DNA of 64,000 nucleotides from Anaerohalosphaeraceae bacterium (lineage in GTDB: Bacteria > Planctomycetota > Phycisphaerae > Sedimentisphaerales > Anaerohalosphaeraceae). The first letter of the stretch is position 1; each line of letters opens with the position of its first letter. Made by a program: the position numbers. The DNA lies in contig JBNRMN010000067.1 of assembly GCA_050309605.1 (NCBI GenBank), forward strand, positions 32,001 through 96,000, in the 5' to 3' direction. This document shows, piece by piece, positions 29,401-35,400 of the stretch.

Positions 29401-32400
29401 CGAGATGACCTCGCGCGGCGTGACCATCGCCGACCCGGCACAGGGGCTGATCCATCTTTCGATAGAACAGTTCCTCCGTTCCTGGCGCGGCAGCGGCATT
29501 GTCCTTCGAAGACCGGCCGCGGCATAACGTCAACAACTCAGGGGCAGGCCGTGTGTCTGCCCCTGATATATCTCATAATTGACGATTCAGCGACAGTCCC
29601 CTTGACCACCCCTCGGAGCGACACCAGCGCGGCACACCAGCGCGGCGCAATAGCGAGGCGGCGCAAGCCGCCCGATACGGGGATGCGTGTGTGTTGAACG
29701 TTATCCAAGGCGAGGTGTTATCCGGCTCACTTGCGCGGCTCGGCTGTTGTACGATGATGCGACACAACAGCGCGGCACAACAGCGCGGCGGCGCAAGCCG
29801 CCCGATCAGCGATGCGGATGCGTAAGGCGTTGTCTGAGTTGTAATATTATCCGGCGGCTTGCGCCGCTCGGCTGTTGAATAATGACGCAGCGCAACGGCG
29901 TGGTGCTATCCGGCCGCTCGCGCGGCTCGGCTATTGTTACGTGTCGCAATCCGGCCGCTGGCGCGGCTCGGCTATTTTGCGATGACGCGACACAACATTG
30001 CGATGGTACAAGGGCACCCGATACGACAATCGCGATGGTTATGATTGGTTTCTTTTTTGTGCCAGCTCGAAGGTGTCGGCGGCGATGGCCGCTTCTTCGT
30101 CCGTCGGAATCACAAACACCCTGACGCGCGAGGCCTCACTGCTGATGAGCCGCTCTTTCGGCTCGGCGGCGGTGTTGCGCGTCGGATCGATGGCGATACC
30201 GATTTGTGTCTGGTCGGCGCAGATGTGATGGCGCAGCAGGGCGTTGTTCTCGCCGATGCCGCCGGTAAACACCACGGCGTCCAGACGGCCCATCGCGGCT
30301 GTGTACGCGCCGATGTATTTGGTAATCCGATAGCAGAAAATGTCAATCGCCAGTTGGGCACGCTGATGCCCTTCGGCCGCCCGCTCGAGCAGATTGCGCA
30401 TATCGTTTGAAATTCCCGAGATGCCCAGCAGCCCGCTTTGCTTGTTGCACATGGCGTTGAGCTGTTTGATGTCGTAGCCCTTATCGGCCAGATAAAACAG
30501 AATCGCCGGATCCATATCCCCGCATCGCGTGCCCATCACCACACCTTCCAGCGGCGTCAATCCCATCGAGGTATCGACACTTTTGCCGCCTTTGACCGCG
30601 GTAATAGAGCAGCCGTTGCCCAGATGGCAGGTGATGACATTGACTTGTGTTTTGTCGGCATCCAGCAGCGCTGCGCAGCGGCGGGCGACATAGCGATGGC
30701 TCGTGCCGTGAAAGCCGTACCGACGCACGCGATAGGTTTCGTAAATTTCATACGGCAGGCCGTACAGATAGGCGGTCTTCGGGATGCTCGTATGAAACGC
30801 CGTGTCAAAGCAGGCCGCCTGCAACGCATCGGGCAGCGCGTGCATGGCTGCGCGGATGCCGGTCAGATTTGGCGGATTATGCAGCGGCGCCAAATCCGCA
30901 TAGCGTTGGATCGATTCGAGGACGTGCTCGTTGATGACCACCGAGCCGGTAAATTCCTCGCCGCCGTGGACGACACGATGGCCGACCGCCTGGATCTCGT
31001 CGATGCGGCTGACCACGCCGATTTTCGCATCCGCCAGTGTGCTCAAAATCACCTGCATTCCCGTGTCGTGATCCGGGGCGTCCACGCCGGCGGTATGTTC
31101 GGTGTTGTTGTACTTGTGGACCAGATTCGCCTGCGGCTCGCCGATACGCTCAACCATACCCCGCGCCACAATCGACCGTTGCGGCATCTCGAACAACTGA
31201 TATTTAATCGACGAACTGCCCGCGTTAATCACCAATATTTTCATACAAGAACAACCTTTCTGATATAAATCCCCATTGTATTCAAATAAAAGGCCTATTA
31301 TGTGCAAAAATATCACTTTCGTCAACGCCTCTCCTGAAAAACCGGGGCTTTCTAAAGCCGGCTCGCGAAAACGCCGATAGATTCTGAACGGTCGCACGTG
31401 ATATATTGTCGAGATATGAGGAAGGGATTTTTACAGTGCCCCAAAAACGCAATCAGCGAGCCTTAAACGCCATTCGGCTGCTGCGAACGCGGCAGCGCAA
31501 GCAGGCTCAAAAGATAGATATTCTGTGTCGGGATATGGTCTCGGCTCACGAACAATTTTCGCTGAAATTGACGCGGCTGGCGTTTGCGGCCTCTTTTTAT
31601 GAGTCGCTGCTGGCCTGTGCCGGGTTGGAAGAGACGCTCGATCGGGCCGTGGAGCTGCTGCGCGCCGATGTGCCGCAATCCGGGGCGGCGATTTTTCTGG
31701 CCGAGGCGTCCGGCTTTGATGTGCATCTGGCCAAGTCAGCCGACCAGAACCAGGTCGAAAAATCGCATTTTCAATGCTGGTTTACACGCCAAATCGTTCG
31801 ACAAATCAGCCAGACCAACCGCGTCTGCACGCTGTCGGAGATGCTGAAAATGGGTTTGCAGGCGCCGCCTTCAGCGCTCAAGACGCTCTCGGCCGCGGCG
31901 GTTCCGCTGGGCCGACTGGGACAGGGCGTCGGCTTTGTCCTGGTTTACCGCACTGCCGAAAACCCCTTGCTGGCCGAGGAGCTGTCGCGCATCGCCGCCG
32001 TGACGCCGGGTCTGCGCGAGGCGGTTATCCGCTTCAAACCCGCCGCCGTCAATCTCAAAACATAGCGGCTATGACTCGGTCATGACCAGCCGGTTGTTGA
32101 GCGTTGCGACAACCTTTGTCAACTGCTTTCATGCCGTTTATCTATTCTTCATTAAACCTTTCTTAAACAAGGGGTTGTAGATTATCTACTTCAATTCAAG
32201 ACCATTCTTTGTCTTATTTGGGAAAAATTTTTATTGACCTATTATTGTAAAACGAATAAGATTAATACGAAAAATTAATATCGGAAGTCCACTGGACTTA
32301 TTCGTTCCCACTGAAACCGCCAAAAACAAGTGTGCGAAAAGAACGAAAGCCAGTGCCCCAGTTTGGGGCGCTGCTTGCATGTCTTTTCGTGGGCCTTGGC

Positions 32401-35400
32401 GGGCCTCAGTGGGGCATGGTAGAGCAGTGCCTCTTTTTGCGAGAATGGCTCGCGATGGAGGATCAAAATAAAACGAAGGGTTTATTTTGAAAGGGACAGG
32501 AAAATGAAGGCAATTCTGAGTGTTTTGTATTTGAGTGTATTGGTTTGTACTGCTTCGGCGGGAAATCTTTCGTTGGTTGCAGATACGGTTGACCCGGATC
32601 CGAATGATGTGATTACAGTCTGGGTTCACGCCAGTGATCCACTGTTTTTTTTGAATTTAAAGGTTTTTGTTGTTGGTGATGCCGCTGTCATTTCGGCGAT
32701 GAGTGAGTCTGACTGCGATGAGTACGGCTGGGATACCAGCATTTATGAAGAACCAACGATTAATCTTGAAGGTAGTCTTTACATAGGCGGTATTTGCTGG
32801 GCGGCCGACGCCAACGATATTGTCGGTTATTTTTCCTTTCGCTATAACAGCGGCCAAGTGGTTGTTTTCATTGATGATGAAAACTCTTTTGCATTTCATT
32901 GGAACGAAAGTTTTACTCTTTCAACCGATGTACTTTTGTTTGGTGAGCCGACTTTACCGGAACCGCAGGAACCCAACGAGCCATCGGCTGTACTGTTACA
33001 ATGTCCTCCCAATACCGGTGGTTCCCGTCGAGTATCCAGCGGAGAAAGGGGTATTTATTTTGACGAACGAACAAAAGAATTCGGGTTGCTTCGGGACGGT
33101 CTTGATTCAGAGCCAAATATCATAGTTGTTAATGCAGACATTACAACAAATCAAATTTGGACGGCGGACAATGTTTATTATATAAATGGAGAGATGGTAA
33201 ATGTTCAGTCATTGCTTGTGATTGAGCCGGGAACAATAGTTATTTTTGGTTATGATTGTGCGTTGTATGTCAACAATGGCGGCGCGGTGATTTCCAGAGG
33301 CACGCCGGATGAACCTATCCTCTATACCTGCGACTACTTATATTTTTATTATCCAGAGGAAATCGGTACCTATTGGATCGATTTATATTATTCTGGATAC
33401 TCCTATTATTTTTGTCCTCTCTATATTGAAGAAACAGCCTCGCCTGCGACGATGGTCTCCTATAGCTTTATTGAAGGCGCTACAGTTGGAATTGCCACAA
33501 ACAACATTCGCCTTGACTATCCAATTGAAAATAATTATCTCTTTGGTAATGTTTATGGAATTGGTGAATATGGTCCCGAACTTACGGATATAAAGAATAA
33601 CCTTTGTTTTTTCAACGACGTATCCGGTATCGATGTATTTCTTGGCGATCCTAATGGTATTGCCAGCGCCCACAGTACGATAGCCATCGAAAATAACACA
33701 TGCGATACATACCAATATTTTGGCATCACGGTTCACGGCGTATCCGATGCCAATGAAACTGCAACAGTTATACTGGTTAACAATATTGTATCCGGATCTA
33801 ATGGATATGGATTGAATCTGGTAGATGATTCTATGCGGGCTATCGTAGCCAACAATGGATATTATGACAATTGGGGCAATAAGAACTGGGAATTTGAGGA
33901 ACATTGTCCTATTCAGACGTATGAATATCCGTTTGTGGCCGGCGAACGAATGTTTGAAACGCATTTTCTTGTTCAGGACTGTAATTTCATTGACGTAGGA
34001 ACCGCTTATGTCGAGCAAACACGGCTGATCGGGATGACAACTGATGTCAACAGTCTGCCGGATAACGGCATTATTGACCTTGGCTTTCATTATTCGAATT
34101 GGCATTATGTGAACACAGGCATCGGTTTTGCAGATACAGATTTCAATCAAGATGGCATAACAGATTATCAGGATTTGTTCATCTTGGCTTCACAGTGGTT
34201 GGAGACCGTCACTTCGGTCAGCGAAGGAGATCTGAATGATGACGGTGTAATCGACTTTGAAGATTTTTCCACCTTTTCAGCAGCATGGCGAAAAATGCAA
34301 GGGACTCCTAATGTTACTGCAACCATGACTATTTCGGATGAGGACAGATCTATCAAAATAGAAGCGGAATACGGAAGCAATTCAATTTATCAGTCTTATT
34401 TGTTGATTGATGGTGTATATATTGCTGAATTAGTGTTTTCAGAAAACATATTCCATCGGACAGTATTTACACCTTGGCTTTCATTAGGACAACATGAAGC
34501 ACGCATTATAGGAATCAGTGAACAGGGTGTTGTTTGCTCTACTCCAGTTTCTTTCGAAATCGACAATAAGATTGGACCTTGCGCGGTTCCTGTTAATTTT
34601 GAGCCGGGCGAACCGTTAACATTTCATATAATTGCCGATGCAAATTCCATTCAAGTTAAAGCCCATTCATGGGATGATTGTGTATGGCAGGAAACATACC
34701 CAATGGGTTCAGTATCCGGTTTTGTTCCTGCCTGGGTAACAGATACAAATGATGTTGAATATTTAGAGTTTCGATGTGGTGCTGACAGCAACTCATTTGA
34801 ATTGATGAGCGCACAAAGTTTAATTGTTCCTTTAAGTGCGATGCGCAAACACGATCCCAATGATATACGAGCTTTAATTGTTCTGCCTGATTTTTGGGTA
34901 AATCGAGTTAACAGTGGTTTAATACGAAGTTATAAGAATTTATTAAAAACACGAAACATACCATATAAAGTATTGGGCTTTTACTCATCCTCTCTGAAAA
35001 ATCTAAGGTACTATGCACAAAACTACAATATCCAATATTTGATTATCAATAGTCATGGAAATTATCGTTATCCAGGTACAGACGTTTTAAGAACCACGAT
35101 ATTGCTTGACGATGGAAATGTTGTTTCCGATAAAATTACTCGACCTGGATCGCCAACTTATTTAGAACGGTTGCCCGGTGATATAGAACATACAGCTCGA
35201 ACATGGGCAGAAATTGGTTTTACGAATTTGAAATACGTACATAACGACAGTTGTTATGGGGGACGATTGTACATTAACAGTTCATGGCAACTCACAGAGG
35301 GTGCTTCCGGACAACAAGGGCTTTTTTCTATGCCGCATAATGATATGACTATTGCATTAAACTTATTATCTAATGATTCTAAATTTTACCTTAGTTGGTA

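Follow-up and report, generated by a model that had tools for sequence, protein, structure and literature searches.

A structured RNA of about 170 nt, previously undescribed and present in multiple copies in one order of anaerobic planctomycetes, lies at positions 32269-32438 of the window (the whole 64,000-nucleotide stretch of DNA that was analysed). Covariation indicates that two mutually exclusive folds of this RNA are both under selection: a long rod (Fold A), and a pair of separate hairpins (Fold B), the second of which is read as a predicted intrinsic terminator because it directly adjoins a U-run. The RNA is probably a cis-acting terminator/antiterminator attenuator that forms the start of mRNAs encoding exported surface proteins, where the leader would most likely act as an on/off valve for the genes that follow. 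The features of the copy in the window are as follows, with energies from folding and with pairing percentages from alignment A6, described below.

32234..32262, + strand: sigma-70-like promoter, TTGACC (32234-32239), 17-nt spacer and TAAGAT (32257-32262), 9 of 12 consensus matches
32269..32284, + strand: conserved single-stranded leader GAAAAAUUAAUAUCGG, predicted 5' end of the RNA, with conservation beginning 6-8 nt after the -10 box
32285..32299, + strand: P0, small 5' hairpin AAGUCC-ACU-GGACUU, -5.0 kcal/mol
32302..32419, + strand: Fold A rod, proposed antiterminator, the minimum free energy (MFE) structure, with covariation on the unfitted alignment A6
32302-32314 with 32406-32419, + strand: P1 of Fold A, 92.5% paired
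32317-32323 with 32396-32402, + strand: P2 of Fold A, 94.7% paired
32330-32342 with 32382-32394, + strand: P3 of Fold A, 86.2% paired
32351-32359 with 32365-32373, + strand: P4 of Fold A, 94.3% paired
32290..32355, + strand: 5'-half hairpin of Fold B, -17.9 kcal/mol, z -2.3
32365..32433, + strand: 3'-half hairpin of Fold B (predicted terminator stem), about 70 nt, -40.5 kcal/mol, z -4.1
32365-32376 with 32422-32433, + strand: outer stem of the 3'-half hairpin, in which the 3' arm of P4 pairs with the 3' element GAGCAGUGCCUC
32378-32385 with 32411-32418, + strand: middle stem of the 3'-half hairpin
inside 32390-32407, + strand: tip hairpin of the 3'-half hairpin, whose loop contains the 3' strand of P2
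32434..32438, + strand: U-run UUUUU in the sequence, directly after the 3' hairpin
32439..32503, + strand: remaining leader to the ribosome-binding region, with hairpin GCGAG-AAUGG-CUCGC, GGAGG and an AU-rich hairpin
32504..35599, + strand: downstream gene, whose 1031-aa product begins with a signal-peptide-like N-terminus and weakly matches a right-handed beta-helix

The first-pass annotation had placed at window 32281-32428 a structured RNA of about 146 nt with nine copies in this genome. The sequence there is as described, all nine copies were recovered by blastn and nhmmer in the 97-contig genome, and the segment folds with -69.5 kcal/mol compared to -47.9 +/- 3.7 for 200 shuffles (z -5.84), none of which folded equally well. 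The extent given was too short, as it left out the conserved single-stranded 5' end, the conserved 3' element and the U-run; the predicted RNA starts 6-8 nt past the sigma-70-like -10 box and ends with the U-run. The reported absence of an Rfam family was borne out, with 0 gathering-level matches to the 4227 models of Rfam 15 in the 64-kb window, and the best permissive match over 32100-32600, to a snoRNA model, reached 22.1 bits where the cut-off is 48 (E 0.096). Matches had earlier been counted in 60 of 101 genomes from all 8 families of the order; a covariance model built independently from 7 copies for this study finds the motif in 83 of 151 genomes, again in all 8 families, with 1-10 copies each, and it is also present in other families of the phylum outside the order. 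Scores are 152.2 bits for the sense strand but 20 for the antisense strand, so the signal resides in the RNA and not in a DNA palindrome. Multiple copies, several of them at contig ends, and the few resolvase- or transposase-like neighbours (loci L023 and L031) might suggest a promoter-carrying mobile or selfish repeat of the MITE or REP kind, with no regulatory role. This origin is extremely improbable, since the copies within the genome are 69-82% identical with compensatory changes instead of near-identical, the signal is strand-specific, the copies lie upstream of and co-oriented with an ORF (83 of 95 loci), and the motif is conserved across the 8 families and in others of the phylum. No near-identical copies with target-site duplications were seen, although no formal search was aimed at such duplications or at terminal inverted repeats.

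The promoter that had been claimed for the motif was also found, with an obvious TTGACx-17-TAnnAT recognised by eye in 7 of the 8 copies with upstream sequence, the exception being the copy on contig C33. For 53 of 102 copies there is a stringent promoter match with 0-12 nt between the end of the -10 box and the RNA start, and for 46 of these 53 the gap from the box to the start of the model match is 6-8 nt; the copy at locus L009 is located between two genes and not behind a promoter. This spacing suggests that transcription starts at about window 32269. The leader region 32269-32284, with the consensus GA(A/C)AAUUNAAUA, is unpaired in both folds, and its positions A2, A4, A5, U7, A9, A10 and U11 are at least 90% conserved among 81 sequences. 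Within P0, which follows directly, 29 sequences have C-G and 27 have U-A at pair 28:34 of alignment A6.

Covariation was measured for both folds on alignments fitted to no structure, A6 being a MAFFT alignment of 81 sequences less than 80% identical that was fitted to no model. On A6 the rod together with the 5' hairpin is 90.7% paired, compared to 35-47% when the partners are slid, with double changes in 42 of 46 pairs and 0 of 500 shuffles reaching any measure (shuffle counts, here and below, overstate significance because related sequences are not independent). Helices P1, P2, P3 and P4 stack as a single irregular, unbranched rod, and the multi-helix junction proposed earlier is therefore abandoned. 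Likewise, the 9-bp hairpin described as invariant is nearly so inside this genome only, and varies with compensatory changes across the order. Among unpaired bases, strict invariance is confined to one A in the AAA bulge that separates P1 from P2; a second invariant column is a U inside P2, and the tip of P4 tolerates large insertions. Most of the sequence conservation is explained by the requirement for pairing in two folds.

The earlier interpretation as a cis-acting leader stands insofar as the RNA is new, strand-specific and structured, has its own sigma-70-like promoter and lies near co-oriented genes for exported surface proteins; what it overlooked is the second, mutually exclusive fold. 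The 5'-half hairpin of Fold B is the MFE structure of the nascent 91-nt transcript. In this hairpin CCACUG.GAC from the P0 region binds the P4 5' arm, and the 5' base of P1 binds the P3 5' strand; the hairpin is 87.0% paired compared to 31-47% with partners slid, with 92 double-change cells compared to 43 in shuffles. As the fourth core pairing is implied once the other three are in place, this hairpin may partly follow from the other three and is perhaps not selected for itself. The 3'-half hairpin is predicted by RNAalifold on unfitted 3' halves, appears in the predicted structure of about 100 of 104 copies if the 3' half is folded by itself, and is 94.9% paired compared to 44-52% with partners slid, with double changes in 20 of 21 pairs. 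The tip hairpin alone is 96.1% paired and has 54 double-change cells compared to 9.5 in shuffles, and the middle stem taken separately has covariation above controls. In the outer stem, the 3' element forms a duplex of -14.06 kcal/mol on average with its own P4 3'-arm partner and of -11.74 kcal/mol with the partners of other sequences, an advantage reached by 0 of 2000 permutations; the duplex is about as strong as P4 (-15.38 with own and -12.88 with other partners), and this tracking also holds in L098, a distant homologue outside the order. The whole of Fold B is 90.6% paired on an unfitted alignment, compared to 40-46% with partners slid, with double changes in 37 of 40 pairs and none of 500 shuffles reaching these values. 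A U-run, defined as 5 or more U among 6 bases no further than 12 nt from the element core, follows in 72 of 99 distinct copies, and a clear one is missing in 27, including C6, C43a and C9 of this genome. The tip hairpin is incompatible with the finished rod because the bases it uses lie around and partly within the 3' strand of P2.

A near-consensus promoter, a hairpin near the 5' end, a very stable rod and large surface proteins encoded downstream would also be expected of a 5' stabiliser or processing element on highly expressed mRNAs, like the long leaders of S-layer and ompA transcripts, in which case the hairpin and U-run would merely dampen expression constitutively. That reading leaves unexplained both that a second fold which excludes the rod is selected for and that the 3' element follows the P4 3' arm, and it is very unlikely.

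The attenuator model draws on three features: a GC-rich hairpin directly before a U-run on the sense strand, a conserved alternative structure that shares strands with this predicted terminator, and a position between a promoter and a co-oriented gene with no promoter-like site of its own. Following initiation at about 32269 from the sigma-70-type promoter, each half of the RNA could fold alone, and the 3' half would become the hairpin of about 70 nt ending exactly at the U-run, stop RNA polymerase and leave a short RNA only. If instead the 5' half paired with the 3' half to give the rod P1-P4, both strands of the terminator stem would be removed and polymerase would continue into the gene. 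Expressed as four core segments, 1:2 plus 3:4 would give termination and 2:3 plus 1:4 would give read-through. Since the loops of the 5' hairpin (AAACCGCCAAA) and of the tip hairpin (UUGGCGG) are complementary, the two hairpins may first 'kiss' via P2 and then swap strands into the rod. The rod is computed to be about 15 kcal/mol more stable than Fold B (-72.1 compared to about -57.4 kcal/mol) and is the MFE structure at every transcript length once P3 is made; termination would therefore need a kinetic trap or a factor. Some factor would set how often strand exchange wins before polymerase reaches the U-run, and the candidates are a small molecule, the speed of polymerase itself, or a protein or RNA that binds P0, the 5' half or the conserved 5' end.

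Between the U-run and the gene, the GGAGG at 32456-32460 has a possible pairing partner in CCUCU, the end of the 3' element; a module similar to 32439-32503 is also found in copies C33, L008, L012, L017 and L018, and no promoter-like site occurs within window 32439-32503. The 1031-aa protein matches Pfam Beta_helix with E 2.4e-4, below the curated cut-off, and no NCBIfam family. A same-strand ORF of at least 150 aa starts within 500 nt in 83 of 95 loci, compared to an opposite-strand ORF of this size in 23 of 95. An N-terminal hydrophobic segment was found in 67 of 80 downstream ORFs, compared to 34% of 2218 genome ORFs. DUF11, beta-helix, NosD or DUF1565 domains occur in 27 of 92 downstream ORFs, PEP-CTERM in nine and dockerin in five. 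To judge from these domains and N-termini, the downstream products are mostly exported surface proteins, in agreement with the association first proposed, although the range is wider than claimed and includes cytoplasmic DNA methyltransferases (3 of 92) and zinc-ribbon membrane proteins (3 of 92). A promoter-like site between the predicted terminator and the ORF was present in only 6 of 75 loci, and two loci, L014 and L019, have a good promoter between RNA and gene.

Because a promoter and a hairpin with U-run bound a defined unit of about 170 nt, the motif could also be a free-standing small RNA gene whose working form is the rod, acting in trans. Fold B would then serve termination only, and the released RNA would refold into the rod, which is the thermodynamic ground state, and act for example by protein binding or through its conserved single-stranded 5' end as a seed; placement before surface-protein genes would reflect co-regulation or occasional read-through. 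The tandem copies (C43, L019, L030, L068, L072, L079 and L092), the separate promoters for the downstream gene at L014 and L019, and the copies before unrelated genes such as methyltransferases are all consistent with this alternative, which is possible but rather doubtful. Against it, 69 of 75 loci are without a promoter-like site in the stretch from terminator to ORF, which would leave these genes without their own promoter, and co-orientation with a close ORF is the rule. No Hfq gene (PF17209) was found in this 99.73%-complete genome. Copies from the same genome diverge by about 30% and carry compensatory changes of their own in P1 and P3, which leaves the short 5' end as the one possible common seed. 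As a separate observation, CsrA is present in this genome.

The gene context, together with an ON-switch architecture in which one strand is common to the closing helix and the terminator, has a further possible explanation in a small-molecule riboswitch, for example for the second messenger c-di-GMP, with the rod as aptamer and the terminator as expression platform; bound ligand would fix the rod and turn the gene on. Many copies precede PEP-CTERM and adhesin-like genes, and this genome has GGDEF proteins, whereas the c-di-GMP-I riboswitch turned up, at other loci, in only 2 of 61 genomes of the order and not in this one. In G018, another genome of the order, a c-di-GMP-I riboswitch precedes a secreted protein that is beta-helix- and LamG-like by eye. 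A passage of PMC12530212 describes the same context in Methylophaga GP59, where four copies of the c-di-GMP-I riboswitch (RF01051) stand before PEP-CTERM/surface-protein genes. However, it is gene context that points to c-di-GMP. The rod is unbranched, with few conserved unpaired bases (the AAA bulge and small internal loops) and a P4 tip open to insertions; its conservation is mostly accounted for by the two folds, and no conserved ligand pocket is evident in it in the alignment of 81 sequences. A riboswitch is thus unlikely, and the attenuator remains the preferred reading.

Several known systems resemble this attenuator in part. Leader RNAs that work with specialised NusG paralogues (RfaH/ops, LoaP, UpxY), and likewise the EAR antitermination RNA, have a processive effect on distant terminators. 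They share with the motif a conserved early element in transcripts for surface structures and, as proposed for the motif, the overcoming of downstream terminators; however, the predicted terminator of the motif lies inside the element. RfaH ops (JUMPStart) is a fixed 12-nt DNA element with a cognate NusG paralogue, whereas the ops-like GGCGGU in the 3' element varies, covarying with the P4 3' arm. A link to NusG paralogues was also set aside, as a second NusG-domain gene is found in most genomes of the order with or without the motif, and several motif-bearing genomes show only one.

The c-di-GMP-I riboswitch likewise forms multi-copy leaders before PEP-CTERM and other surface-protein genes, but its fold differs, with no match in sequence or structure, the RF01051 model has no hit in the 64-kb window or anywhere in this genome, and the resemblance is confined to gene context. 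The pbuE adenine type is a transcriptional ON riboswitch whose terminator and closing helix compete for one strand, the 3' strand of that helix, so that a long-range helix prevents termination, as is proposed here. The motif has no multi-helix junction and no evident conserved pocket; its competing helices are far longer, and its entire 3' half re-pairs. The antisense kissing-loop systems ColE1 RNA I/RNA II and CopA/CopT also have two hairpins whose loops are complementary, so that contact between them might extend to a long duplex, but the two hairpins of the motif, which would kiss in the same manner, are on one molecule.

Classical terminator/antiterminator attenuators include the four-segment leaders of the trp type and those dependent on proteins such as PyrR, TRAP and LicT. 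The motif differs from them in having no conserved leader peptide frame (by eye, from indels) and no recognised binding-site pattern such as GAG/UAG repeats or a RAT element, and in being matched by no Rfam model. It has in common with them a 5' leader of four segments that pair as 1:2 and 3:4, the latter a hairpin with U-run, or as 2:3, with two shapes that would decide between stop and read-through. Unlike them it also forms 1:4, and its proposed read-through shape is consequently a continuous rod of about 45 bp.

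A structured stretch at positions 32281-32428 of the window was described in the first-pass annotation as one of nine copies of a leader RNA, and the RNA has a folding energy of -69.5 kcal/mol; 200 dinucleotide shuffles give -47.9 +/- 3.7 (z -5.84). All nine copies were recovered in the 97-contig genome by blastn and nhmmer: one each on C67, C33, C6 and C44, two each on C43 and C19, and a cut copy on C9. The other copies share 69-82% identity with the window copy, and the minus-strand copy on C19 is 3'-truncated or recombined. The absence of an Rfam family, also asserted previously, holds for Rfam 15, which gave zero gathering-level matches in the whole window; the best match of a permissive scan of 32100-32600 is a chance-level snoRNA hit that scores 22 bits where the cut-off is 48. 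The start originally assigned is too far downstream: when the copies are aligned with their flanks, conservation sets in upstream of it, with GA(A/C)AAUUNAAUAUUGAAAG standing before a small 5' hairpin (P0) and beginning 6-8 nt downstream of a TTGACx-17-TAnnAT promoter. A promoter resembling TTGACC/TATGAT had been proposed before the window copy and is indeed there, and its position together with the 6-8 nt spacing predicts the 5' end.

Features of the leader and its surroundings (window positions)
30039-31397, minus strand: acetate kinase (Pfam E 8e-151)
31406-32065, plus strand: 219-aa ORF, no Pfam family
32234: TTGACC of the promoter
ending at 32262: TAAGAT of the promoter
about 32269: predicted 5' end of the RNA
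32269-32359: 5' half
32302-32314: P1, 5' strand
32317-32323: P2, 5' strand
32365-32433: hairpin of the 3' half (-40.5 kcal/mol, z -4.1)
32365-32376 with 32422-32433: outer stem of that hairpin
within 32390-32407: tip hairpin
32434-32438: U-run, UUUUU
32504-35599: gene for a 1031-aa protein with a signal-peptide-like start
35601-36152, plus strand: 183-aa ORF, N-terminal hydrophobic segment, no family

Of 102 copies, 53 have a stringent promoter match whose -10 box ends 0-12 nt upstream of the RNA start; for 46 of these the distance is 6-8 nt. Some loci are arranged differently. Loci L024, L033 and L035 have no sigma-70-like promoter upstream of the leader, and in L033 and L035 a small hairpin lies directly upstream in its place. 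In L009 (1501-2942), the leader begins 2 nt past the stop codon of a same-strand beta-helix gene without a promoter of its own and is an intergenic element within an operon.

A covariance model of 165 positions and 46 pairs, built on seven of this genome's copies, found the motif in 83 of 151 sampled genomes of the Sedimentisphaerales, with 1-10 matches each and scores in foreign genomes reaching 158 bits; among genomes at least 90% complete the figure is 64 of 118. The matches fall in 43 of 76 genera and, as the earlier survey had found, in all eight families of the order. Inside some genera the distribution is patchy (4 of 10 and 8 of 12 genomes are examples), and complete genomes such as G064, G066, G022 and G016 have 2-6 copies each. 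When 151 genomes from across the phylum were sampled, nine had the motif, two of them members of the order; matches in the remaining seven are weaker (27-51 bits), and none of the five genomes from the same class outside the order had one. The best match outside the order, L098, has kept both the rod and the 3' element described below. L098 (genome G159) and L099 (genome G299) are weaker homologues (47-52 bits) from other families of the phylum; both are without the CACUG hairpin P0 and keep a rod and a 3' element matching their own, different P4 sequence. The window copy scores 152.2 bits on the sense strand versus 20.0 on the antisense strand; the signal is therefore in an RNA with G-U pairs, not a DNA palindrome. 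Tandem copies on the same strand a few hundred nucleotides apart occur in L003 (this genome's C43; 351-514 and 878-1057) and likewise in L019, L030, L068, L072, L079 and L092. On C43, a truncated leader and an ORF start follow the first copy, and a PEP-CTERM gene follows the second.

Single-sequence folds and RNAalifold agree on P0 (AAGUCC-ACU-GGACUU) and on what follows it: the helices previously drawn as a multi-helix junction instead form one long irregular rod (Fold A).

Helices of the rod, in order
P1: 13 bp, sequence variable, followed by an AAA bulge
P2: CCGCCA/UGGCGG
P3: sequence variable, followed by a small purine-rich internal loop
P4: CAGUGCCCC/GGGGCGCUG

The covariation first offered for these pairings came from an alignment fitted to the model, which favours pairing, and this worry was answered with 81 matches less than 80% identical, aligned by MAFFT alone and drawn from 104 matches after the cut L006, the truncated L004:426 and the partial L079:2255 were dropped. 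The pairing holds on this unfitted alignment, with P0 and the rod 90.7% paired versus 35-47% when partners are slid. Double changes occur in 42 of 46 pairs (740 cells); one pair of P0 is C-G in 29 sequences but U-A in 27. None of 500 shuffles matches the alignment on any measure, although this and the other shuffle tests overstate significance because the sequences are related. Some lineages have an extra hairpin of up to about 60 nt (UUGCC...GGCAA) inserted at the P4 tip (alignment columns 130-195, e.g. L067, L069, L072, L078, L092 and L095), so the P4 loop is not a recognition site.

Downstream of the rod lies a conserved 3' element, (A/G)GCGGUGCC(C/U)C, which repeats the sequence of the P4 5' arm; in 72 of 99 distinct copies of the leader a U-run comes directly after it. 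Its duplex with the P4 3' arm averages -14.06 kcal/mol, P4 itself -15.38; paired with the partners of other sequences the element reaches only -11.74, and 0 of 2000 permutations reach the value obtained with its own. This tracking of its own P4 partner is clearest in L019:1248, L030:2015, L094, L074, L034 and L063, and is likewise seen in the distant L098. When the 3' half is folded by itself, about 100 of 104 copies give a single long hairpin (mean -37.8 kcal/mol), which before the U-run is a putative intrinsic terminator. Its outer stem joins the P4 3' arm plus flank with the 3' element, its middle stem joins the P3 3' strand with the 3' base of P1, and its tip hairpin (GGCC-UUGGCG-GGCC) holds the P2 3' strand in its loop. 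The hairpin was scored by folding, as a simple terminator scan misses it because of a loop limit of 8 nt. A local short terminator formed by the P1 3' strand and the 3' element gave -8.72 kcal/mol with its own partner versus -7.95 with others; it is weaker than the pairing with the P4 3' arm in 93 of 99 copies and was dropped as the main stem. A pairing between the P0 loop CACUG and the 3' element, proposed by RNAalifold, is unsupported: it is 90.5% paired without covariation, and 173 of 500 shuffles reach it.

RNAalifold also predicts the 3'-half hairpin on a MAFFT alignment of 81 never-fitted 3' halves. On the separate 3'-half alignment, 94.9% of cells are paired versus 44-52% slid, with double changes in 20 of 21 pairs and 0 of 500 shuffles as good. 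Fold B as a whole, comprising this hairpin and one in the 5' half, is 90.6% paired versus 40-46% slid on the full alignment, with double changes in 37 of 40 pairs. Taken singly, the tip hairpin is 96.1% paired versus 85.1% shuffled (double-change cells 54 versus 9.5) and the middle stem 85.6% versus 80.0% (60 versus 24); the 5'-half hairpin is 87.0% versus 82.1% (92 versus 43), but may be a by-product, since any one of the four core pairings follows once the other three are given. The arms of the tip hairpin sit in the internal loops of the rod flanking P2, and P2 columns take part in two of its pairs, so it cannot coexist with the finished rod. As judged from covariation, this shows a second fold, incompatible with the rod, under selection. 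That the leader would be purely a stabiliser of mRNA is very improbable, as selection for such a second fold is left unexplained; the same objection meets a mobile repeat, a reading that can hardly be credited.

The simplest reading, and probably the right one, is that the leader would act as a terminator/antiterminator attenuator. Fold B would stop transcription at the U-run, whereas Fold A, as putative antiterminator, would take up both strands of the terminator stem and let the polymerase reach a gene without its own promoter. Promoter-like sites between terminator and ORF are present in only 6 of 75 loci, clear promoters in L014 and L019. A free-standing small RNA that terminates via Fold B and then matures into the rod would account for the promoter and terminator, for the tandem copies and for the second promoter seen at two loci, but it would leave 69 of 75 downstream genes without any promoter and is considered unlikely. 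For the attenuator, folding of growing transcripts indicates that the 5'-half hairpin is the best structure until the P4 3' arm is made, after which P4, P3, P2 and P1 zip in turn. At the decision point the rod (-72.1 kcal/mol) is some 15 kcal/mol more stable than Fold B (about -57.4), so the in silico default is read-through, and the conserved terminator fold therefore needs a kinetic trap or the help of a factor. One strand of P2 is the loop of the 5' hairpin and the other that of the tip hairpin, and loop-loop contact through them may nucleate the exchange into the rod.

Twenty-seven of the 99 copies have no clear U-run, among them C6, the first copy on C43, and C9. A subclass without a U-run after the 3' element comprises these three and their relatives (L002, L003:351-, L006, L016, L027 and L040); it has a conserved extension of about 110 nt (AAUAUUCU...CAGGAGCGUUCCCGUCGG...CAGGGACG...) with further hairpins, and the ORFs that follow start METER... 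and are extended at length N-terminally of the signal peptide. Copies with this longer conserved leader may be controlled differently. In the stretch 32429-32460, after the U-run of the window copy, a small hairpin and a GGAGG box can pair with the CCUC/CUCC end of the 3' element, an arrangement also present in L001, L008, L012, L017 and L018. In transcripts that read through, such pairing back could add another level of control, at translation or a standby site.

An ORF of at least 150 aa starts on the same strand within 500 nt of 83 of the 95 matches with at least 1300 nt downstream, while the same stretch has an opposite-strand ORF of that size in only 23 of 95. A Pfam search of 92 downstream ORFs gave the following classes.

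Pfam classes among 92 downstream ORFs
DUF11: 19
Beta_helix: 17
union of DUF11, Beta_helix, NosD and DUF1565: 27
PEP-CTERM: 9
Dockerin_1: 5
Laminin_G_3: 3
DNA methyltransferases: 3
zinc-ribbon proteins: 3
FGE-sulfatase: 2
no family: 38

Of 80 downstream ORFs with 100 aa or more, 67 were positive in a crude export test (a 12-residue window with mean Kyte-Doolittle of at least 2.0 within the first 70 residues), versus 33.9% of 2218 ORFs of at least 250 aa from this genome. The 1031-aa protein of the window has a sub-threshold beta-helix match and no meaningful NCBIfam match, one to FimI being far below threshold (E 0.0039). The protein after the second copy on C43 ends in ...PEP-hydrophobic-KRKR, a PEP-CTERM signal by eye that no HMM reports. 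In L024, L033 and L085, from other genomes of the order, the leader precedes DNA methyltransferase genes (EcoRI_methylase, D12 class, N6_N4), and in L035 an ORF without a Pfam match. In other genomes the leader shows no link to the acetate kinase or to the 219-aa and 183-aa ORFs of the window. As for a regulator encoded nearby, the 22 nearest distinct upstream ORFs are, by Pfam, unrelated housekeeping genes with nothing recurrent.

Several effectors were considered. An Hfq partner was rejected, there being no Hfq gene in this genome; CsrA is present. A NusG paralogue was also set aside, as 148 of the 151 genomes carry a NusG domain, most of them two copies, regardless of the motif. Indels between copies, followed by eye, leave no conserved frame for a leader peptide. 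It is by its gene context only that the leader is suggested to sense a second messenger: known c-di-GMP riboswitches are reported before PEP-CTERM genes in Methylophaga (PMC12530212). This genome encodes GGDEF proteins, and a c-di-GMP-I riboswitch was not found in it. Two other genomes of the order have canonical c-di-GMP-I riboswitches, one (L100, G004:C30, 71 bits) before a gene that looks chemoreceptor-like and the other (L101, G018:C59, 64 bits) before a secreted protein that is beta-helix- and LamG-like, both by eye. A strict riboswitch is possible but quite improbable; no ligand pocket is visible in the leader. A bolder version of the attenuator is tentative, and doubtful as a whole: a self-contained kissing attenuator of an undescribed kind, in which two tandem related hairpins of one transcript would touch by their complementary loops and then exchange strands into a 45-bp rod, dismantling the 70-nt terminator. 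One order-wide effector, either a second messenger or an RNA-binding protein reading the conserved 5' end, would thereby switch the whole set of surface proteins, whether adhesin-like, PEP-CTERM or dockerin, jointly on or off.

No published description of the leader was found in the open-access literature, to which the search was confined. The leader is a new RNA family, unusual in its design of two hairpins versus one rod. If the attenuator reading is true, this would be the first regulatory RNA described for planctomycetes of the Sedimentisphaerales type and would give a single handle on the expression of their surface proteome, which is large and for the most part uncharacterised (DUF11/beta-helix giants as well as PEP-CTERM and dockerin proteins) and which presumably serves in attaching to polymers of anoxic sediments and in breaking them down. 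To RNA biology it would offer a clean natural bistable RNA, both states having independent covariation, in which two related hairpins stand against one rod possibly nucleated by loop-loop contact. The predicted working mode is like that of intrinsic-terminator attenuators and ON riboswitches. As in a classical attenuator, pairings of segments 1:2 and 3:4 are set against 2:3; unlike the classical case, the leader adds a 1:4 pairing, which makes the rod.
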